20,000 nt of DNA from Parvularia atlantis (taxonomy: Eukaryota): assembly GCA_943704415.1 (NCBI GenBank), contig CALSCO010001118.1:54228-74227 (forward strand), in the 5' to 3' direction. This document shows positions 1,796-18,363 of the stretch, piece after piece. The position numbers and the translations under genes were made by a program. Position 1 is the stretch's first letter. The number at the start of each line of letters is the position of its first letter. Under the pieces are notes generated by a model, which saw only the letters and a list, made by a program, of their open reading frames with translations, searched no databases and was not told the DNA's origin.

Positions 1796-4108
1796 ATGGC
1801 CGCGACTGCATCGCCGCCTCTCGCCACACCGTTGGCGCGCGCCCTGTCGCCCGCCTCACCCGACGTCACCCACCGGCTCACGGTGGAGCTCAACGTGCGT
1901 ATGGTCGCGCTGCCGTGGTGTGCGAGCGCGCGCTCACAAGCGGCCGCGGCAAATGACGGCGCAGATGCTTGCTGACGGCTCAGGCTCGGCGTCGGTCGCG
2001 GGCGGCGCGTTCCTAGCCACGGTGCACGAGGACGACCTGGCTGGGCTGATGGCGTCGTTCCAGGTGCGTGTGTCTGTGTCCGTGTGCGCGTGCGTGTGCG
2101 GTGCTCACGGGCGCGCGGCGGCGGCGTCAGCGCGCGACCGCCAACCGCGACGAGGTCGAGGAGGTGCTCTACAGGCGGCGGCGCGAGGCCGGCGGCTTGG
2201 GCTGGTTCGTCGGCAAGATATTCGTGTCGTCGCCGTGGCCCGCGGTGGGCGGGACGGCTGAGGCGCGTGGTGCCGGCCCCGCTGCGTCGCACAGGGTCGG
2301 TGACCGCGTGCGTTGCAGATAACGGTCATCGAGCGCGACGTGACGAGCGAGTTTGAGCGCGTGCGCCACATCGAGGCTGAATACGAAAAGTTCAAGTGCG
2401 TCTGGCATACGCGTCTCTCTTGTGCGCAGCAACGGCTGACCGCCCATCGGCCGCGCCAAAGGGACCTATTTGACCAGCAAAGCGACATCTTCTACCGGCT
2501 CGACCTCCAGGGCCGCTTCGAGATGGTCTCGTACGCGAGCCTGGCGCATTGGGGCTTCACGCCGCACGAGCTCGTGGGCAAGCCGTGCTGGGACATGGTC
2601 GTGCCGAGCGACTACCAGAACGCCGTCATCCAGGTGCGCAGGCCCGGCCGCGCGGAGCGGCGCAGGCCGACGCAGCGATACGGCCGCGCAGTTCCAGGGC
2701 TGCATCATCAACAACGCCGTGCCGCGCCCGTTCCTCGTCCGGAGGAGATGCAAGAGCTCGTCGCTCGTCACCGAGCAGATCCAGCTCACGCCCGTGGGCG
2801 ACGCACGCGGCGGCCGCGTCACCCACGTCAACGCTGTCTCGCGCAAAGTCAGCCTCGGCCCGGGCAACGCCAACGCCGCCAGCAGCCTCTTCGCGGCCAA
2901 CCTGAGCGGCCTCCTCGGCGCCCCGCCCGTCCTCGCCGCGCCCGCGATGGCCAGCGCGCCACTATCGCAGCCGGCCCAGCCGCCTCAGCAGCAGCCAGCA
3001 CAACAACAGCAGCAGGTGGGGCACTATGTCTCTTTGCCGCACCCGCCGGCATTTTTGTCGGTGCGTGCGTGTGTGCACCGCGCGATCGCGCGCTCACTGG
3101 CTCGCAGCAGCAGCCGTACGGCGTCGGGTCACCGGGGCTCGTGCTGCCCTTTGCCGACCCAGCGCACATGCTCCCGTCGCCACTGCACTGGCTGTCCAAC
3201 ACGGCCGCGGCGGCAGCGCCTGCGTCGGCACCCGTGGAGAGTGCGTGCGGGCGGCGCGTGCATCTGTGCTGGGCTGAGCGCCCCGCCGCAGACGGGCAGT
3301 ACCACGGCCTCTACGGAGGCGCGGCGCTGATGCAGGCCATCTACACCAACGTCAACACGGGCGCCGTGCACACGCAGCCCGCGGCGGCGGTGGCCGGCAC
3401 GAAGCGCCCCGAGAGCGAGAGCGCAGAACGTCTGCAACAGCTGGACGGCGCAGGCGGGCCCGGCAGCGCCAACGGCAACGGCAACGGCAACGGCACGGGC
3501 GCGGGCGCGGGCGCGGGTGGCGACAGCAACTGGTCGCCGCTGTGGACCGACGACGGCCAGGGCGCACGCAAGCACATCCGGTACAGCCTGGGCGAGGCGA
3601 CGGTGCAGTTGCGACCGGGCGCCGCCCGTGCAACGCTCACGCGCGCACAGGTGTCGCCGATGTCGAACGAGTTTACGATCAACAACGTGGCGATGACGGC
3701 CGTGTTCAACAACGTGCGCGCCGAGGCCGCACGCCACACCGGTGTACGGGTGGCTGAGCCCTGCCGTGCGCGCAGAACCAGACGAAGCGCAAGCCCAAGG
3801 AGTCGCCCGACAAGGTGCCGTGCATCATGTGCAGCACCGTGCGGTCGCTCGAGTGGCGCAAGGGGCCCGACGGCAAGAAGGTGCGGGCGCGGTGCGACGC
3901 GCGGGCGCACGGAGCTCACAGGCGCGTTTCGGCCCAGTCACTGTGCAATGCGTGCGGTCTGCGCTACGCACGCACGCAGAAGGGCAAGGACGGCAAGGGC
4001 GCCAAGGACGCGACGGCCGCGCCTGCACCCGCCGTTGCACCCGTTGAGGCCGCCGCGCCACCGCCAGCCCTGGCACCACCAGACGCCCCCGCAGCCGCAC
4101 AGCCGTGA
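1796..4108 (+). CDS. PAS-PAS-GATA zinc-finger transcription factor (White Collar-2-like architecture)
   Basis: PAS-like VHEDDL...YRRRREAGGLGWF...IERDVT; second PAS DIFYRLDLQGRFEMVS...GFTPHELVGKPCWDMVVPSD; Q/G-rich linker; GATA finger CIMCSTVRSLEWRKGPDGKK|SLCNACGLRY. About 10 introns: 1895-1964, 2064-2130, ~2245-2318, 2396-2461, 2634-2691, ~3061-3107, 3241-3291, ~3603-3650, 3714-3775, 3881-3937. Donors marked ~ are ambiguous. Confidence 0.85.
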
Positions 4109-4158
4109 CCATTCTGATACTTTCTTTACATTGCAAGTGCCCAGTGCGCCTCACGAGC

Positions 4159-5381
4159 TCAGCACCGCGGTGCCGCACTGCGTGACCGGTTGAGCGCGGC
4201 CAGCGCGTGGACGTGCCCTGTGAACTCGACCACATCCGGCGGCTCGTCTGGCGGCGGGCCCGGCACGCACAGCTGCTTGACGTGCCGGCGCAGCCACGGC
4301 ACGAGCACAGCCATGCACAGCTGTGGCGTCTCCTCCTGAGGCATGTGCGCGTTCTGGTCAAACAGGCGCAGCGTCGCGTGGGGCAGCGCGCGCAGCAGGC
4401 GCAGGTAGTGCCGCGGCGGGACGACGTTGTCCTTTGCGCGCGCGACTGCAGTGAGGGCAACGCAGTTTTTTGGCAACTCGGAGGCGCACACCTGGTTGCC
4501 GCCGACAATCAGCACCGACGCGTGCACGCGGGCGAGCTCCTCGCGCGTGAGCGAGACGGGCGCGTTGATGACGGCCTTGCACGCGGCCCAGTACAGCTGC
4601 TGCCAGTTGGGCACAAGGCGGTCGGCGTAGCCGTCGACGACGTCGGGAGTGACAACCGACTTGTTGTAGAACGTCGTGTTGACCATGGCGTCTGCGAGCG
4701 GCGCGCGTGAGGCGTACATGGCGGGCCGTGCGCGCCCGGGCCGCACCCGTGAAGCGCTCCATCATGAACTTGGCCGTCACGGGCATGATCGTGTTCATAA
4801 GCGGCGTGTTGAGCACGCGGCGCAGGCCAAACGGCGCGCCTGCCGCCGCGTGTCAGCTCGCGATGGGGCCCGCACTCCGGCTGGCGCGCACCGCCGATGA
4901 ACACGGCCGGCGCAAACAGGACCAGCCCCGCGACGCGCTCGGGGTGGCCCAGCGCGACCATCATCGCCGTCAGGCACCCGATCGAGTGTCCCACGAGCAG
5001 GACGCGCGCGAGGCCCAGGCGGTCCATGAACTTGAGCACGGCGTCGGCAGCGTACTGGTGCGAGTACGGCATGACCCTTCGCTGGTTGCGGAACGCGTCC
5101 TTTGTGCCGACGGCCGCCCCGCGCGACAGGCCAAAGCCGAGCCGGTCGAGGCAGTAGACGTGCGCGCCGAGGTCGCAGAAGCGCGGCACGAGGTTGCGCC
5201 AGGTGTAGGTCGACCCGCCAAACCCGTGCAGGCACAGGAACGGGGCGAGGTGCACGCCGCCGCCGGCCGGCGCGGTCGGCCGGTGGTGCTCAAAGTGCAC
5301 CTGGAAGCCGTCGATGCTGATGAAGCGCGCGTCGGGCCCCGGGCTGAAGCTACCAAGGCGGCGGCGGAGGCGCTGCGGCAT
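4159..5381 (-). CDS. Alpha/beta-fold hydrolase (Abhydrolase_1/6-type)
   Basis: LHGFGG, DRLGFGLS, nucleophile elbow GHSIG, GGNQ|DNVVP (acid residue) and NAHMPQEETP (His). Introns 4840-4891, 4692-4746, 4432-4491. Confidence 0.9.
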
Positions 5382-5445: not shown

Positions 5446-6974
5446 ATGATGGCTCGCGCCGCTCTGGGGATCGCGCTCGTCGCCGCGCTCGCCCTCGCCG
5501 CCGCCGCGCGCCGCCCGCAGGCCGCGGCGCACAACCAGGTGCGCGCGCAGCCCGCAGCGAGGTCGACTGATGCGGGTGGGCGGGCGTGCAGTACGTCGTG
5601 CAACTCGTGCCGGGCGTCGACGTCGACGAACACCTCGCTGCACTCGGCCTATCGCACGAGAACGGCCCGCACCAGCAGCACCTCCACGCGGGCGCGCCCG
5701 GCGGCGACCAGCCGCGCGTGCGCGCCGTGTACCGCCGCGCGATCAACGGCTACGCCCTCCAATGCAGCGACTCGTTCCTGCTCGCGGTGCGCGCGCGCGG
5801 CGAGCGCGAGGTCCTGCGCGTCGAGCCGGACGTCTTTGTCGGCTTTGACGGTGACGCCCCCGCGCGGCCCGACGCCGCGCCCACGCCCGACGCCGCGGAC
5901 GTCGACCGCACCGAGCAGCGCAACCCGCCCAGCTGGGGCCTTGACCGCATTGACCAGGCCCTGCAGCCCCTGGACCAGCTCTTCCGCGTGCGTTTGCAGT
6001 CGGACCCCGCGCGGCCCTCACGCGGCTGCGCGCAGTACCCGGACGTCGCCGGCGCGGACGTTGACGTGTACTCGCTCGACACCGGCGTTGACGTGGAGCA
6101 CCCGGTGCGCGCCGTGCGCAAGCAGGTGTCGCGCGCACGTGCTGACGTGTACGCTCCCGGCCTGCAAAGGACTTTGGCGGGCGCGCCGTCTGGGGCAAGA
6201 CGATCGTCGCGGGCAGCGCCGACGCCGACGGCAACGGCCACGGCACGAGTACTGCGGCCATCGCGGTCGGCACGTCGTTTGGCGTGGCCAAGCGGTGCGT
6301 GTGCAGCCACTGCGCTTCGTCATCTCTGAACCGCGCCGCAGCGCCAACGTGATCGCCGTCAAGGTCTTCAACGACGGTGGCTTTGGCTCGACGGCGGACC
6401 TGATCGCCGGCCTCGACTACGTCATCGCCTCGGCAGAGGCGCACAAGCCCAACCGCGCCGTGGCCATGATGGCCCTCGGCGGCAGCAAGTCACCCGCGCT
6501 CGAGAGCGCCGTCCAGACCGCCGTCGAGGCCGACATTGTCGTCGCCGCCGCGGCCGGCAGCTCGGCCACGGACGCATGCAACTTCTCGCCCGGCGGCTCG
6601 CCGCTCGTGCTCACCGTCGCGGCCACCGACGCCAGCGACAGCTACGCCGGCACCTCCAACGGCGGCCCGTGCGTCAAGCTCGCCGCGCCGGGCGTGCTCG
6701 TGACGACGGCGCGGCCGGGCGGCGGCAACACGACCATCACCGGTGCGCACGGCGCGCGCGCAGCGGCGCATCCGCTGACAAGCGCGCACTGCACACAGGC
6801 AGCTCGTTTGGCTGCGCGCACGCGGCCGGCGCGGCGGCGATCGCGCTGTCGCTCCACCGCGACTACTCGCCCGCGCAGATCGAGCAGCTGCTGATCGACC
6901 AGTCGACCAAAGACGTCCTGCGCAACGTGCCCGCCAACACCGCCAACCGCCTCCTCTTGGTGCACCCGGCGTGA
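5446..6974 (+). CDS. Secreted subtilisin-like protease (S8, proteinase K subfamily) with I9-type propeptide
   Basis: Hydrophobic signal peptide; NQ|YVVQL prodomain; [17 protein letters not shown] (Asp); DGNGHGT (His); [12 protein letters not shown] (Ser); C-terminal NTANRLL. Introns 5539-5591, 5988-6035, 6105-6169, 6295-6341, 6743-6798. Confidence 0.92.
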
Positions 6975-7116: not shown

Positions 7117-9066
7117 TCATTTGGCCGCAGCTGCGACTGCAGCGGGCTGGTCGCTCTTCATACGAAGACACTCGAGCATTTTCTTGACGGCTGCAGCGTG
7201 ATCCAGGATACTGGCGCTAGTCCTCTTGCTCGGCTTGCGGGCGCCGCCCGGCCCGGGAGAGGCATCTGGGATCTTCGACACCTTGCCGAAATCGATGAGC
7301 ACTGCCTTTTGGCGGCCTTGAGCATCCTTGTATAGGCCGACATGCCGCCACGTGAGGTCGTCGTGACAGAAGCCGCTTGCCGCAAACTTCAACACAGCTT
7401 CCTTGGCGGCCTGTTGAACATCGACACCCTCGTCAGGCTGGCTGTTGCCGCACATCTTCATGAACGGCATCAAAAGCACCCTCTTGCCCATCAGCTGCAC
7501 AATGCGCACGCCACGGACACCCCACACGTTACTCCAGATGTCCGCTTCTTTTTGGAAGCTCGCGGTGCGATCGTTGCCGTCGTTGCGGGGAAATTTGAGC
7601 ACACATATGTGTCCATTGGTGGCCGCCGCAAGCCAGACGCGTCCACTGACGCCGTCCCCAAGGTGGTGGAGCAGGTAGAATGTCGTGCAGTGCCGCGAGG
7701 GCAAAGGCCACATGGTCGCTTGCCCACTGACCTTGGGTTGCTTCCACGTCCACGAGTTCTTGCTCACCAGAATGACGCTGCGCTGGTCACCGAGAAGATC
7801 GTCTACGCCTTTGGCCACTGAAGAAGACATCATACGCAGGGCAGATGCAATCACCAGCACCGTGTCCGGGTCGCTGGACTCGTAGACAGACGAACCATTC
7901 ATTGCCCGACGGCTGTTTGACTTGGGTGTCACGTTCCCGTCCACTTCGTCCCCGTCCCCGTCCTCGTCCTCGTCCCCGTCCTCGTCCTCGTCCCCGTCCT
8001 CGTCCTCGTCCTCGTTTTCGTCCTCGTTAGTTTCCTCATGACCATCATGCTTGTCGTCAGTCTCCGACACCTCGTCAGGCTCCTCATTGTCAGCCCAAGA
8101 CGGAACCTCGTCGAGGATGCTGCGCGAGAGTTTCGAGTCAGTCGTCGCGGTGGTGCTGAAACGGTCGTCCAGTGGCAGAAGTTGGAAGATGCGCCACTGT
8201 GTGTACGTGGTTGCAATGCCGATGACGTTGTCGAGACCATAGAAATTGCGAAGGCGGTGCATGTAGTCATACAGTTGACCTGCCACATTAGTGTCGCTCA
8301 AGATCTTGTCCTTTGGACGCTTGATCTCAAGGACGCCCACAGGGATGCCGATGCCGTTCTTCAGCACCCAAATGTCCGCTCGGTCGCCGAACACAGACAG
8401 CTCGTTCTGAAAATCGAGTCTAATGCCCTGCGGTAGGATGGAGTTGGCCGCGAGCACGGCCTCAATGTCTTGAAGAGCATTCTTCACGTAGTTGGCCACG
8501 TCGCTTTCACTGCCGTACGGAAGAGCAATATCTCCCTCCGAGTCAACACCTGGTCGCTGAAGATTCTCGTATGTGACCCACAGGGCACTGCGTCGAAGCG
8601 TCTGAATGTCAGCTTTCTTGACAGTGGAGACGAAGCTCCACTCCCTGAGCTTGGCTGGTTTATGCTTCTTGCGCTCCGTGTTCGTCGTGGCAACTTGGCC
8701 AACTGGGTAAGGCGACATTGGCGGCAGACCCTTGTCGATAAGCTTGCGCATGCTGTCGTCAATAGGCGCGGCGGCGGGCTGAGGCGCCAGCGCTCGAATG
8801 GCCTTGAAGAGCTTATTCCGCTCTCCAAACGATACTCGCAGATCACGCAGCACTTCCATGAGAACCTCGCTCGTCAAGTCAAACAAATCACTGCCCTTGA
8901 TGTCCTGCTCGCGGAATCTGTGCACGACGTCTTCGCCGTACCCATTGGACGTCAGCCATCTGGCGACGTCGTCCTTGTTCCAGTCGATGACTTTATCGAT
9001 AGCGAGCACTTTCAGCTGCGAGCTGAGTGCGTCGGCGGAAGGCGCAGTAACCGCCTTATCGCCCAT
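7117..9066 (-). CDS. Intronless SAM-domain + PD-(D/E)xK nuclease-fold + kinase-like protein (Crinkler/RHS-type effector architecture), 649 aa
   Basis: SAM: WNKDDVARWL...FREQDIKGSDLFDLT...L..L.VSFGER.KL. REase-like: SESDV...E...ADIWVL...GVLEIKRP...GQLYDYM...GIATTYTQWR. Kinase: LGDGVSGRVW, VLK, E in FQKEADIW, HDDLTWRH, VLIDFG. Single exon, visibly lower GC than its neighbours. Confidence 0.8.
   Translation of the reverse strand: MGDKAVTAPSADALSSQLKVLAIDKVIDWNKDDVARWLTSNGYGEDVVHRFREQDIKGSDLFDLTSEVLMEVLRDLRVSFGERNKLFKAIRALAPQPAAAPIDDSMRKLIDKGLPPMSPYPVGQVATTNTERKKHKPAKLREWSFVSTVKKADIQTLRRSALWVTYENLQRPGVDSEGDIALPYGSESDVANYVKNALQDIEAVLAANSILPQGIRLDFQNELSVFGDRADIWVLKNGIGIPVGVLEIKRPKDKILSDTNVAGQLYDYMHRLRNFYGLDNVIGIATTYTQWRIFQLLPLDDRFSTTATTDSKLSRSILDEVPSWADNEEPDEVSETDDKHDGHEETNEDENEDEDEDGDEDEDGDEDEDGDGDEVDGNVTPKSNSRRAMNGSSVYESSDPDTVLVIASALRMMSSSVAKGVDDLLGDQRSVILVSKNSWTWKQPKVSGQATMWPLPSRHCTTFYLLHHLGDGVSGRVWLAAATNGHICVLKFPRNDGNDRTASFQKEADIWSNVWGVRGVRIVQLMGKRVLLMPFMKMCGNSQPDEGVDVQQAAKEAVLKFAASGFCHDDLTWRHVGLYKDAQGRQKAVLIDFGKVSKIPDASPGPGGARKPSKRTSASILDHAAAVKKMLECLRMKSDQPAAVAAAAK
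7945..8025 (-). repeat. Acidic coding tandem repeat (DEDE/DGDE)n
   Basis: Plus strand reads tccccgtcctcgtcctcg repeated; encodes EDEDEDGDEDEDGDEDEDGDGDE between the nuclease and kinase domains. Confidence 0.85.
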
Positions 9067-9395
9067 ACTTGAGCTGCTACCCGGGGCTGTTGGCCAGCTG
9101 ACGGCCGTGTGAAGCCGCCGGCGGCGGAGATGAGTCGCTCAGATGACGACCGCGACGGCTGCTGTTTCCATTTCAGCAACAGATGTCTCACGCGCAGCTC
9201 AGCGCACCTTCCCTCCCCTGCACACGTGTAGGTGTGCACTGTCTGTTCGAGACTACGGTGCGGCGGTGGTGCTCAGACGGGTCTGGAGCCGCGGCGCGCC
9301 GGGTCAAGCAAATGACCGTTACACTCTGGATGATTCCCGAAAACTCTCGATCATCCTGCATGAGGAGCGTTCGCGCTCAAGGCGCACCCGCGCAG

Positions 9396-13329: not shown

Positions 13330-16300
13330 ATGGCTTCGGCAAGGCGGCGCGCGGCGCCGGTCGAGGACGAGGACGAGGAGGGCGTGCCGGCGGACGAGCG
13401 GCCGCAGGTCGTGCTGGACGAGGGCGACGGTGAGGTCGAGATGGGCGGCGCGGACGACGACGACGACGACGACGAGCAGCAGCAGCAGCAGCGCGAGAAG
13501 GAGAAGGAGAAGGAGCAGCGCCGCGCCGGCAAGAAGCGCGCGCGGGTGGACGAGGACGGCGAGGACAGCGCGGCGGCGACGCCGGCGGCACCGGCCGCGA
13601 CCAAGGGGTGCGTCGCCGGCGGAGCGGGGGCGAGCGGCGCGCGTCTGAGCAACTCGCGCCGCGCAGGACGCGTGGGGGCCAGCCGCAGGCCGTCGTGTCG
13701 GACGCCGAGATCGCCGCGAGCAACTCGAAGGAGGTGCGGCACGAGGTCGCCGTGCCGGCCAACTACCCCTTCACGCCGCTCAACGAGTACACGGTGCGCG
13801 CGCTTCTGGCTTGCGGCGCGCGGCTGAGCGACCGAACGGGGCGCAGGCACCGGCCAAGCCCGCGCGCGAATACCCGTTCGTGCTCGACCCGTTCCAGAAG
13901 TGGTCGATCGCGTGCATCGAGCGCGGCGAGTCGGTCCTCGTCTCGGCGCACACGTCTGCCGGCAAGACCGTCATCGCCGAGTTTGTGTCGCGCGCGCCGC
14001 CGCCGTGTCCGCACTGTTGTTGATCGGCGCAACGCAGGTACGCCATCGCGCTCTCGCTGCGCAACAAGCAGCGCGTCATCTACACGTCGCCCATCAAGGT
14101 GCATGCGTGCCTGCGCGCGTGCGCCCGCGTCGTGAGCCGCGACCGTCCACCAGGCGCTCAGCAACCAAAAGTATCGCGAGCTGTACGAGGACTTCCAGGA
14201 CGTGGGCCTGATGACGGGCGATGTGACGATCAACCCGACGGCGAGCTGCCTCGTGATGACGACCGAGGTGAGTCCGCCTGCGTGCGCGTGCGCAGCTTAT
14301 GCGCGCGCCCAGATTCTGCGCAACATGCTCTACCGCGGCTCGGAGGTGATGCGCGAGGTCGCGTGGGTCGTCTTTGACGAGATACACTACATGCGCGACA
14401 AGGGTGCGCTACATACCGTGACGATGCTGCGCAATGAGCCTGAGACGGTGGCGCACGCAGAGCGCGGCGTTGTGTGGGAGGAGAGCATCATTATGCTGCC
14501 CAAGAGCGTGCACCACGTGTTTCTGTCAGCCACGATCCCGAACGCGCGTGAGTTTGCCGAGTGGATTTGCAAAGTGCACGAACAGGTGCGCTGCGCCGTG
14601 CGGCGTCTGCGTCTGCGCGGCCGACACGACGGTTGCGTGCAGCCGTGCCACGTCGTCTATACCGACTACCGTCCGACGCCGCTGCAGCACTACCTCTTCC
14701 CGGCTGGCGGCGACGGCATCTTTCTCGTGCTCGACGAGCAGGGCAAGCTGCGAGAGGACAACTTCACCAAGGCGCTGGTGTGTGCGCGTGCAGGAGTGCG
14801 CGCGCAACGTCGCTCACCGCCGACGTCGCGCAGTCCATGGTGGCCGACACGCCCGCACGTGGCAGCGGCGGCGGCGGCGGGCGCGGCGACCGCAAGGGCG
14901 CGGGGGCGCGCGGGCCGTCAGACATTAGCAAGGTGCGCGTCCCGCCTGCACGCGCCGGACGATCGCTGATGCCGTCTTCGCCCACTGCAGATCATCAAGA
15001 TGATCATGGAGCGCAGTTACCAGCCGGTGATCGTCTTCGCCTTCTCCAAGCGCGAGTGCGAGAACCTGGGCAAACAGATGTCCAAGCTCGACTTCAACAC
15101 GGAGGTACGCGTGGGCGCGGGGTAGCGGCCGAGCGTGACACTGCCGCGCACGCGCAGGATGAGAAGGCGATGGTCGAGGCCGTGTTTACGAACGCGATCG
15201 ACTCGTTGTCGGAGGACGACAAGGCGCTGCCGCAGATTGAGGCGATCCTGCCGGTGTGTGCGGCCGTGCGGCGCCGACGTGGCGGGCTGCTGACACGCTT
15301 CTCGCAGCTGCTTAGGCAAGGCATCGGCATCCACCACGGTGGCCTGCTGCCGATCTTGAAGGAGGTAATCGAGATCATGTTCCAGGAGGGTTTGCTCAAG
15401 GCGCTGTTTGCGACCGAGACGTTTGCGATGGGCCTCAACATGCCCGCGCGCACGGTCGTGTTCACGTCCGTGCGCAAGTTTGACGGCAAGGACTTTCGCT
15501 GGGTGCGCGGTGCCTGCGACGTCACCCGGGGAAGGCTGCGCAGCTCACGCGAGCGCCGCGCGCCAGGTGAGCTCGGGAGAGTACACGCAGATGGCCGGGC
15601 GCGCCGGCCGTCGCGGCCTGGACGACCGCGGCATCGTGATTCAGATGGTCGACGAGCGCATGGACCCGGCCGCGGCGCGCAAGATGCTCATGGTGCACGG
15701 CGCCTGCCGTGAGCTGGGCGCTGTGCTGACGGCGAGCAGGGCGGCGCTGACAACCTCACGAGCGCGTTCCATCTGTCGTACAACATGATCCTGAACCTGA
15801 TGCGCATCGAGGACATCAGCCCCGAGTACCTGCTTGAACGCTCTTTCTTCCAATTCCAAAACAACGCGTCGGTGCCGGCACTCGAGCAGCGTACGCGCGC
15901 CAGGCACCTTGTGAGCAGCTCACGCTGGCACCGTGCCCGCAGAGGTCAAGGAGCTCGAGGCAAAGCGCGACGGCATCGTGATCGACAACGAGGAGGGCAT
16001 AGCCGAGATGCACTTGATCAAGCAGCAGCTCACGCGCTACGCAGAGGACGTGCGCACGGTCGTCAACCACCCGTCGTTCTGCCTGAGCTTCCTGACGGTG
16101 CGGCGGTGCGGCTTGCGGGTCGACCAGCAGCTGATGACGCGCCGGCCGCAGCCCGGGCGGCTTGTGCGCGTGCGCGACGGCGAGGTCGACTACGGCTGGG
16201 GCGCGGTGATCAACTACCAGAAGCGCTCGACGCAGACGAAGCTGGTGTGTGCGCCTGCGCGTGCGTCAGTGTGCACGCCTGCTGACCGCGGCGCAGAGCG

Positions 16301-17163
16301 GCGCCGTGCCCGTCGACGGCTCCGTGGCCAAGTACATCGTCGACGTGCTGCTGTACTGCGAGCCCGGGTCGAGCGCCAACGGGCGCATCCCCACGCCGGC
16401 CAAGCCCGGTCAGAAGGGCGAGATGTTGGTGCGTGCAGTGCAGTGCAGAGCGGGACGACGGCGGGGCGGGCGCCAAGCAGACGCGCGGCGCCAGGCCGTG
16501 CCGGTCATGCTCAGCACGCTCGACGGCGTGAGCTCGATCCGCGTATACATGAGCAAGGACGTGCGGCCGCTCGACAGCCGCCAGGCCGTCTACAAGGCGG
16601 TGCAGGTGCGTCGCGGTCGCTGCGTCGCGGTGTGCGCTTCTCATGCCGCGTGCCGGGCGCAGGAGGTCAAGAAGCGCTTCAACGAGGTCGTGCCGCTGCT
16701 GGACCCGATCGAGGACATGAAGATCGAGGACGCGGGCTTTAAGAAGCTGCTGGCGGTGCGTGGCGCGCGCCTTTGTGACATAGCGGCGGCGCCTGACGGT
16801 TGTGCGCGCGCCAGAAAATGGAGACGCTCGAGAAGCGCCTGAAGGAGCACACGCTGGCCAAGGACCCGCAGCTCGCCGCGCTGTACGACGCGTACGAGGG
16901 CAAGGTGCGGCCCATTCTCCGCGGTGGGTGGCAGGTGGCGGGCGCGGCTGGTGGGTTCCGGGGCGCGCCGCAGCCCGATGCGTGCCCGGCTCATAGGCGG
17001 CGCCGTGCCGAGCTGGGCTGGGGCGTGGTGCGCAGAACAGACGCGCGCTGCTTATTACGAGCGCGGGGCGGGGTCTGCTCTTTTTGCGCCCTGGTCTCCG
17101 GCTGTGCTCTTGCAACGGCAGCCACACGCTTTCTCTCCCCCGCGCTCGCGCATGCGCGCACTC

Positions 17164-17243
<80 letters not shown>

Positions 17244-18363
17244 GAGCGTGTGCGCGAGCGTGCACTCGCGTGCGTTGACCGGGCGGCGCATTGTGCGTGC
17301 CGTCCCGGTCCGCACGGCGCCGGCTCAGCCGGTCGCGCAAAAACGGGTGCAACACCAAGTCCCGGCCTCGCGCCGGGGCGGGTCTCTTTGGCGAGCCCTG
17401 TGCGCCTCCGCCATACACAGAAGCTCTTGCGATGACGCCCACAGCACCCAAACCCGCGCTGACACGCACCCCCCGTCCCAGGTCCGCCTCAACGCCGAGA
17501 TCAAGGCGCTCAAGAAGGCCATCCGGCAGGCCACGTCGATCATGCAGATGGACGAGCTCAAGTGCCGCAAGCGCGTGCTGAGGCGGTGCGTGTGTGGCGC
17601 GCCGGCGTGGGGAGCACCGCGCTGACAGCTACCCAGACTCGGGTACACAGCGGCGTCGGACGTGATCGAGATGAAGGGGCGTGTCGCCTGCGAGGTGCGC
17701 CTGCGCTCGGCCCGCGCGCGACGGGCTCGGCACTGAGCGGCTGGCGTGGCGCAGATCTCCACGGGCGATGAGCTGCTGCTGACCGAGATGATTTTCAACG
17801 GCGCTTTCAACGACCTGGTGCGCCGCCGTGCCGGCCGTCGTGTATCGGCTGAAGCGTTGTGCGCACAGGCCGTCGAGCAGGCTGTTGCGCTGCTCTCGTG
17901 CTTTGTGTTTGACGAGCGCAGCGACGAGCAGCCGCGGCTGCGCGACGAGCTGGCCGGCCCGCTGCGCATGATGCAGGAGTCGGCGCGCCGCATCGCGCGC
18001 GTGTCGCAAGAGTCCAAGCTCGTCGTCGACGAGGAGCAGTACGTCGCGTCGTTCCGGTCCGAGATGATGGACGTGGTCTACCAGTGGTGCAAGGGCGCCA
18101 AGTTTGCGCACATCATCGGCATGACCGACATCTTCGAGGGCAGCATCATCCGGTGCATCAAGCGCCTGGAGGAGCTCCTGCGGCAGATGTGCGCTGCGGC
18201 CAAGGCGATTGGCAACACCGAGCTCGAGAACAAGTTTGCCGAGGGTGCGCTAACGCGGCGTCGTCGTGCGCTCGCCCTGCGCTGACACGCGTGCGCGCGC
18301 GCACGCCCAGGCATCACGCTCATCAAGCGCGACATCATCTTTGCCGCCAGCCTTTACCTGTGA
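13330..18363 (+). CDS. MTR4: Exosome RNA helicase MTR4 (SKIV2L2/Dob1), 24 introns
   Basis: [73 protein letters not shown]/arch region and C-terminal [13 protein letters not shown]. 23 introns are 45-66 nt; one is 577 nt (16905-17481). Confidence 0.97.
16961..17129 (+). ncRNA. Intronic box H/ACA snoRNA (MTR4 intron 20); 3' pocket predicted to target LSU rRNA just 5' of the sarcin-ricin loop
   Basis: Hairpin 16963-17033, H box AGAACA 17034-17039, second hairpin 17047-17122 with pocket UAUUAC/UUGCAAC, and ACA at 17124-17126, exactly 14 nt from the upper stem. Confidence 0.8.
17165..17242. repeat. (AC)39 microsatellite
   Basis: Perfect dinucleotide repeat of 78 nt inside MTR4 intron 20. Confidence 0.99.
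17261..17446 (+). ncRNA. Second candidate intronic box H/ACA RNA
   Basis: Stem TGCACTC/GGGTGCA (17261-17267/17345-17351) followed directly by ACACCA (ANANNA, 17352-17357). 3' hairpin has a GGGCG/CGCCC base and GAGC-CTGTG/CACAG-GCTC upper stem; ACA at 17441-17443 is 14 nt from the upper stem. Confidence 0.55.

Follow-up and report, generated by a model that had tools for sequence, protein, structure and literature searches.

Why is one intron of an MTR4 helicase gene about ten times longer than the others, and does it encode a small nucleolar RNA? The first-pass annotation of this window, the whole 20-kb stretch of DNA that was analyzed, had proposed a textbook box H/ACA snoRNA (here, unit 1) in what it took to be the only long MTR4 intron, and had attributed the length of the intron to it. 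Pfam places MTR4 stalk, beta-barrel and DSHCT domains in translations of the host exons, the named homologues of the gene are MTR4 helicases, and a EukProt protein whose source label is the genus Nuclearia is 100% identical to the host protein. Nuclearia is a freshwater amoeba related to fungi. A spliced mRNA contig from RNA run X2 joins 16904 to 17482, and the identical EukProt protein is uninterrupted across the same joint, which together define a host intron of 577 nt at 16905-17481. The exons, the intron and two sequence landmarks within it are as follows:

16815 to 16904, + strand: upstream MTR4 exon, from the X2 contig and the EukProt protein.
16905 to 17481, + strand: host MTR4 intron, 577 nt, GT..AG, from the spliced X2 contig and the identical EukProt protein.
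17165 to 17242, no strand assigned: perfect (AC)39 microsatellite between unit 1 and a second structured unit (unit 2).
17459 to 17463, + strand: CTGAC branch-like motif in the host intron.
17482 to 17586, + strand: downstream MTR4 exon, from the X2 contig and the EukProt protein.

Short introns in the same gene were verified at 17 positions, 13 from the X2 contig (14582-16814) and four downstream from the EukProt protein (51-66 nt); overall they measure 47-66 nt, and the host intron is about ten times longer. The description of this intron as the sole long one therefore holds among the 18 verified introns, all of them downstream of 14500. Unit 1 is wholly intronic, has the same orientation as the spliced MTR4 transcript (sense strand) and starts 56 nt past the 5' splice site. 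Ascribing the length of the intron to a snoRNA turned out to be right in kind, but unit 1 itself occupies only 169 of the 577 nt; the remainder includes the (AC)39 repeat and the second structured, H/ACA-like unit. All 17 verified short introns (14582-18312, + strand) have GT..AG ends, and a CTGAC-like motif stands 15-20 nt before the AG in the introns within 16755-16813 and 17587-17637 and in the long intron.

The order of elements that had been reported, hairpin, AGAACA, hairpin, ACA, is present at 16961-17129 on the + strand, and recomputation returned the same pocket-to-box distances, 15 nt to the H box and 14 nt to the ACA box. The elements of unit 1 are:

16961 to 17129, + strand: unit 1, candidate box H/ACA snoRNA, delimited by its anatomy and a strict rule scan, with putative ends.
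16963 to 17033, + strand: 5' hairpin, 71 nt; folded alone, -47.8 kcal/mol, z -2.62.
16963-16971 with 17025-17033, + strand: lower stem of the 5' hairpin, 9 bp, GCGCGCCGC/GUGGUGCGC.
16972-16983 and 17019-17024, + strand: 5' pocket, AGCCCGAUGCGU / UGGGGC.
16984-16992 with 17010-17018, + strand: upper stem of the 5' hairpin, 9 bp, 15 nt to the H box.
17034 to 17039, + strand: H box AGAACA, which fits ANANNA, directly after the 5' hairpin.
17047 to 17122, + strand: 3' hairpin, 76 nt; folded alone, -31.3 kcal/mol, z -1.37.
17047-17052 with 17117-17122, + strand: lower stem of the 3' hairpin, only 5-6 bp long, GCUGC(U)/(G)GCAGC.
17052-17058 and 17110-17117, + strand: guide strands of the 3' pocket, (U)UAUUAC and UUGCAAC(G) (UUGCAACG).
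17059-17066 with 17102-17109, + strand: upper stem of the 3' hairpin, 8 bp, GAGCGCGG/CUGUGCUC, 14 nt to the ACA box.
17124 to 17126, + strand: ACA box, one C after the 3' hairpin and 3 nt before the putative end at 17129.

Unit 1 thus has the two hairpins and the ANANNA hinge by which box H/ACA RNAs are recognized, and in both hairpins the top of the pocket lies within the characteristic 14-16 nt of the box. A 7-nt linker separates the H box from the 3' hairpin. The two pockets behave differently on folding: the 3' pocket stays open in the minimum free energy (MFE) structure of its hairpin folded alone, whereas the 5' pocket is mostly closed by GCCC/GGGC pairing in the MFE structure. Both hairpins are weaker when the reverse strand is folded, the 5' hairpin falling from -47.8 to -33.8 kcal/mol (z -0.15) and the 3' hairpin from -31.3 to -22.7 kcal/mol, which assigns the structure to the sense strand.

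If the 3' pocket guides pseudouridylation, its strands predict the target 5'-GUUGCAA-U-N-GUAAU-3', and the target that had been claimed does follow from them. The large subunit (LSU) rRNA sequence that the first-pass annotation had given in support is also real: the exact target adjoins the sarcin-ricin loop, on its 5' side, in 7 of 7 loci from other eukaryotes. These loci came from a scan of prokaryote assemblies for the motif followed by the sarcin-ricin loop motif, so they were selected by the pattern itself; all seven match Rfam LSU_rRNA_eukarya and are eukaryotic contaminant fragments. The same pattern scan in viral contigs gave no matches. The helix 95 stems beside the target differ among the seven fragments, indicating that the motif is a widespread variant. 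In the helix that comes before the sarcin-ricin helix, the target U takes the first position of the inner segment, according to the Rfam consensus structure. In human LSU rRNA, two sites (4576/4579) presumably lie a few bases 5' of the predicted target position; a literature search for them brought up only papers whose titles looked unrelated.

Against 5'-(C/U)GUUGCAA-UA-GUAAU-3', as found in these seven fragments from other eukaryotes, the 3' pocket forms 8+5 bp, of which no more than one is a G-U pair. Only 0.01-0.04% of random guides paired as well (20,000 pairs per base composition, 954 nt of LSU), a rate that becomes about 10^-3 over the full rRNA set and is meaningful only if the LSU of the organism itself has this variant. 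The 5' pocket, whose strands predict 5'-GCCCCA-U-N-ACGCAUC-3', reached a best pairing of only 4.5-6 on the LSU fragments and has no target there. On balance, we favor the view that the 3' pocket of unit 1 aims at the helix 94 U adjoining the sarcin-ricin loop.

The predicted helix 94 pseudouridine of unit 1 is missing from the Arabidopsis and yeast lists of PMC8351944; for domain VI of Arabidopsis the mapped pseudouridines number only two there (H97 and H98), and Supplementary Table 2 lists none in 25S rRNA between U2965 and U3100. The Arabidopsis guide snoR97-2 acts, according to the same table, on 25S U2964/U2965, equivalent to yeast U2975 and human U4522 (PMC8351944). Like unit 1, snoR97-2 is built of two hairpins with H and ACA boxes, its pocket lies 14-16 nt from the box, and its target is in the same 3' region of LSU rRNA. 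The predicted site of unit 1, however, is further 3', in helix 94 beside the sarcin-ricin stem, and guides of the snoR97-2 type share no sequence or Rfam similarity with unit 1. Human SNORA81 guides 28S U4636 in H96 of the H94-H97 junction, according to a preprint (bioRxiv 10.64898/2026.10.06.757013). It resembles unit 1 in being an H/ACA guide for one U of the four-way junction bearing the sarcin-ricin helix, but the helix and the position are different, the organism is an animal and no homology is apparent.

The site of the long intron was then compared across relatives. A metagenome scan for MTR4 yielded 582 pattern matches, reduced to 142 relatives and 80 retained loci. The coding sequence is continuous at the intron site in 54 of these 80 loci, five have an intron exactly there, and 21 are without paired flanking matches. 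The five introns are about 550 nt long in L001-L003 and 74-76 nt in L058/L059. L001-L003 represent one organism, the nearest relative found, with 73-79% amino acid identity and its long intron at the same codon; the other four gaps in the alignment are about 23-64 nt. The L003 long intron spans 3646-4196, and L001 and L002 are near-identical to it.

The long intron of this relative contains an H/ACA-like unit at 3705-3902, which begins 59 nt past the 5' splice site and consists of a long, non-canonical 5' domain (z -3.74), the sequence AUACCA and then a 63-nt hairpin (z -2.77). The top of its 3' loop is 14 nt from the ACA, and the pocket closes in the MFE structure. A box C/D reading of this unit (UGAUGA ... 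CUGA) was rejected, since the UGAUGA is part of a near-perfect local stem; both motifs were judged to be parts of stems, not C/D boxes. The unit in the relative resembles unit 1 in occupying the same MTR4 intron site at a similar distance from the 5' splice site (59 versus 58 nt) and in having an ANANNA box, a 3' hairpin and an ACA 14 nt from the upper stem. It differs from unit 1 in its closed pocket, in its long, non-canonical 5' domain and in its guide strands, which achieve no more than 4+2 pairing at the helix 94 site. By sequence it is closer to unit 2 than to unit 1, in a 37/64 match, in the AUACCA/ACACCA box and in a UUGGC strand. Unit 2 comprises:

about 17261 to 17446, + strand: unit 2, a less canonical H/ACA-like unit.
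17261 to 17351, + strand: 5' domain, an 8-bp outer stem (17261-17268/17344-17351) around two hairpins, with no canonical pocket.
17352 to 17357, + strand: H-box-like ACACCA, aligned with AUACCA in L003.
17380 to 17440, + strand: 3' hairpin, 14 nt to the ACA.
17380-17383 with 17437-17440 (or 17376-17380 with 17436-17440), + strand: lower stem of the 3' hairpin.
17384-17392 and 17427-17436, + strand: strands of the 3' pocket.
17393-17396 with 17423-17426, + strand: upper stem of the 3' hairpin, only 4 bp.
17441 to 17443, + strand: ACA, 16 nt before the CTGAC branch-like motif.

This part of the host intron is strongly structured: the segment 17255-17351 folds at -60.1 kcal/mol (z -3.87; none of 200 shuffles was as stable), and 17243-17430 has a z of -3.60. 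Among ungapped 64-nt matches of one intron to the other, the 37/64 match (17382 in the window against 3841 in L003) is the best and was reached by one of 200 shuffles. Blocks at ACACCA/AUACCA, UUGGCGAG and CUCUUGC.AUG with CACA five bases on are collinear in the two introns. Local alignment of unit 2 to the intron of the relative under +1/-1 scoring was not significant (32 of 500 shuffles). Three of the seven alignable base pairs are changed on both sides, which is weak evidence, as the comparison has only two distinct sequences and shuffles did equally well in 53 of 500 cases. The fold z-scores and the resemblance to the relative together indicate that the intron likely holds a second, less canonical H/ACA-like unit at about 17261-17446. 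Given this counterpart in the homologous long intron of the relative, the length of the host intron is likely explained by its role as a snoRNA host.

Unit 1 also shares features with both of these units. The best ungapped 40-nt match pairs its upper-stem, guide and ACA end with the L003 unit (26/40; three of 200 shuffles reached this), and all three units have A.A.CA in the H box and a 3' CUCUUGC.A.G followed by CACA five bases later. This shared junction and ACA spacing would fit tandem paralogues, although they are no proof of such an origin. Several snoRNAs per intron, in intronic clusters, occur in plants and Chlamydomonas. The host intron is like these clusters in placing two H/ACA-like units in one intron of a ribosome-biogenesis gene and unlike them in that its bearer is a Holomycota-like amoeba and unit 2 is structurally weak.

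The same similarities bear on whether unit 1, if a genuine H/ACA RNA, has its target in helix 94 at all. It could instead have arisen by a recent tandem duplication of unit 2 and be an orphan, be decaying or target another RNA, in which case the LSU match would be a coincidence with a variant that the organism may not have. Such an account would explain why unit 1, unit 2 and the L003 unit have the upper-stem/guide junction and ACA spacing in common, and it agrees with the poor fit of the L003 unit to the site and with the unmodified state of the site in the Arabidopsis and yeast lists of PMC8351944. We nevertheless consider it unlikely: pairing of 8+5 bp with at most one G-U is rare among random guides, the motif recurs in LSU fragments whose helix 95 stems differ, and the pocket is both open and at the canonical distance from the ACA box. 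Guidance to helix 94 remains the reading that we prefer for the 3' pocket.

To set the architecture of unit 1 against chance, we used a purpose-written rule scanner that requires, twice, a box, a lower stem, a loop, an upper stem and a distance of 13-15 nt, with ANANNA and ACA as the two boxes. Its thresholds were chosen after the candidate had been seen, and dinucleotide shuffles served as control. With lower and upper stems of at least 5 and at least 8 bp, unit 1 was the sole match on both strands of the 20-kb window and none of 200 shuffles gave a match. At stems of at least 5 and at least 6 bp there were two real matches against a mean of 0.14, with 24 of 200 shuffles containing at least one; at stems of at least 4 and at least 5 bp, four real matches against a mean of 2.3, with 52 of 60 shuffles containing at least one, amounted to no enrichment. 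The second match at the intermediate threshold (H 6728 / ACA 6793; 6728-6795, + strand) was rejected as a snoRNA and taken as chance, because it overlaps a subtilase-like exon and an intron of about 56 nt.

Covariance models, proposed at the outset as a check on the candidate, did not bear it out: no curated Rfam H/ACA family matches unit 1. At the gathering score Rfam gave no matches in the whole window, and at E<=10 no H/ACA family appeared at 16800-17500 or in the long intron of the relative, only microRNA- or lncRNA-like chance matches. The word textbook overstates the case for a candidate RNA whose 5' pocket closes in the MFE structure and has no target on the LSU fragments and which matches no Rfam family. 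Searches for relatives of unit 1 gave a similar picture. Blastn found no DNA similarity to it among the 80 MTR4 loci, a guide-pattern regular expression matched the window itself and otherwise chance coding sequence, and a single-sequence covariance model of unit 1 (R1) had a best match outside the window at E=2. Local alignment to the intron of the relative was equaled by shuffles in 88, 222 and 109 of 300 cases. Blastn, regular expression, covariance model and local alignment thus found no orthologue in which pair-preserving change in unit 1 could be followed.

These results can be read as the signature of a look-alike, in which fortuitous hairpins with ANANNA and ACA motifs arose in sequence of 70% G+C and yield no stable RNA, while the intron is long by virtue of (AC)39, the structured unit 2 or insertion remnants. 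Besides the missing Rfam match and orthologue, the excess of only four matches over 2.3 under relaxed rules and the intermediate-threshold match within coding sequence, such a reading can point to the whole 169-nt molecule, whose MFE structure is not the two-hairpin form and is no more stable than shuffles (z -0.55; 55 of 200 equally stable), and to the ends of the X2 contig described below, which do not mark snoRNA ends. It does not account well for the placement and composition of unit 1. The host intron makes up about 1.4% of the searched sequence, and unit 1 falls within it and on the sense strand. Seven-mers with at most one G or C are 0.4% of those in the window, and only three occur in the host intron; two of them fall within the 5' guide strand of the 3' pocket and the third in the apical loop, so that A/U-rich sequence coincides with a guide strand. 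Together with the absence of any match in 200 shuffles at the stem strengths of the candidate, a guide match to real LSU sequence that at most 0.04% of random guides attain per 954 nt, strand-asymmetric folding and a long intron retained at the same codon in a relative, these observations make a chance origin quite improbable. Unit 1, at 16961-17129, is probably a genuine box H/ACA snoRNA encoded within an intron.

RNA data cover the unit. A second X2 contig, of 283 nt, extends from 16895 to about 17177 and spans the whole of unit 1 at a depth of 14.9, compared with 42.2 for the mRNA. The unit 1 stretch is therefore present in an RNA-derived assembly. Because this contig begins in the exon and stops in the repeat, its ends reflect unspliced RNA or the limits of assembly and are not snoRNA ends; it is the (AC)39 repeat at 17165-17242 that terminates it. 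The short introns are uncovered in X2, perhaps as an effect of assembly, and we dropped their coverage as a control since the assembler may remove such short side paths. A lake-water metatranscriptome (run X3) contains unspliced pieces of the gene that are 100% identical, at 16348-16948, and that could be DNA or nascent RNA. They leave unit 1 uncovered and count neither for nor against it, but their identity indicates that the organism occurs in such samples. Runs X4 and X5, from organism B, provided just short exon pieces less than 90% alike and were of no comparative use.

If unit 1 behaves as established H/ACA biology would lead one to expect, it would be trimmed out of the spliced MTR4 intron, with the debranched lariat processed by exonucleolytic trimming, and would be bound by Cbf5, Nop10, Nhp2 and Gar1. 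Its 3' pocket would act as the guide, pairing through 7-8 bp 5' of the U and 5 bp 3' of it, and would pseudouridylate the U in 5'-GUUGCAA-U-A-GUAAU-3' of LSU helix 94, on the 5' side of the sarcin-ricin loop. We infer the mature ends of the RNA, the presence of the target in the organism's own LSU and the modification of the U. The 5' hairpin would likely be structural or an orphan.

Nucleariids are the sister lineage of fungi. No paper combining the terms Nuclearia and snoRNA was found in the literature searched, and unit 1, if real, would be the first H/ACA guide RNA described for nucleariids. What is known of the H/ACA mechanism would be unchanged, as unit 1 would be an ordinary kind of gene that is new to this lineage. 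The locus also suggests a rule for annotation: in a genome with introns of about 50-65 nt, a ten-fold longer intron can flag hidden non-coding RNA genes. If the two units are indeed related and paired in one intron, they would offer a small and testable case of guide duplication and retargeting. A more ambitious proposal, which we put forward only tentatively and regard as doubtful, is that the long MTR4 intron has been conserved as a snoRNA host in nucleariid-like amoebae, with unit 2 common to a second species and unit 1 a lineage-specific tandem duplicate retargeted to the U at the base of the sarcin-ricin stem, a site unmodified in Arabidopsis and yeast; a new rRNA pseudouridine guide would then have arisen within one intron.

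Elsewhere in the window, an intronless open reading frame of 673 amino acids at 7117-9138 on the - strand encodes SAM domains and a DUF5898 domain (E 3e-27) and is unusual among its intron-rich neighbors. The G+C content of this block is 0.55-0.59, compared with about 0.70.
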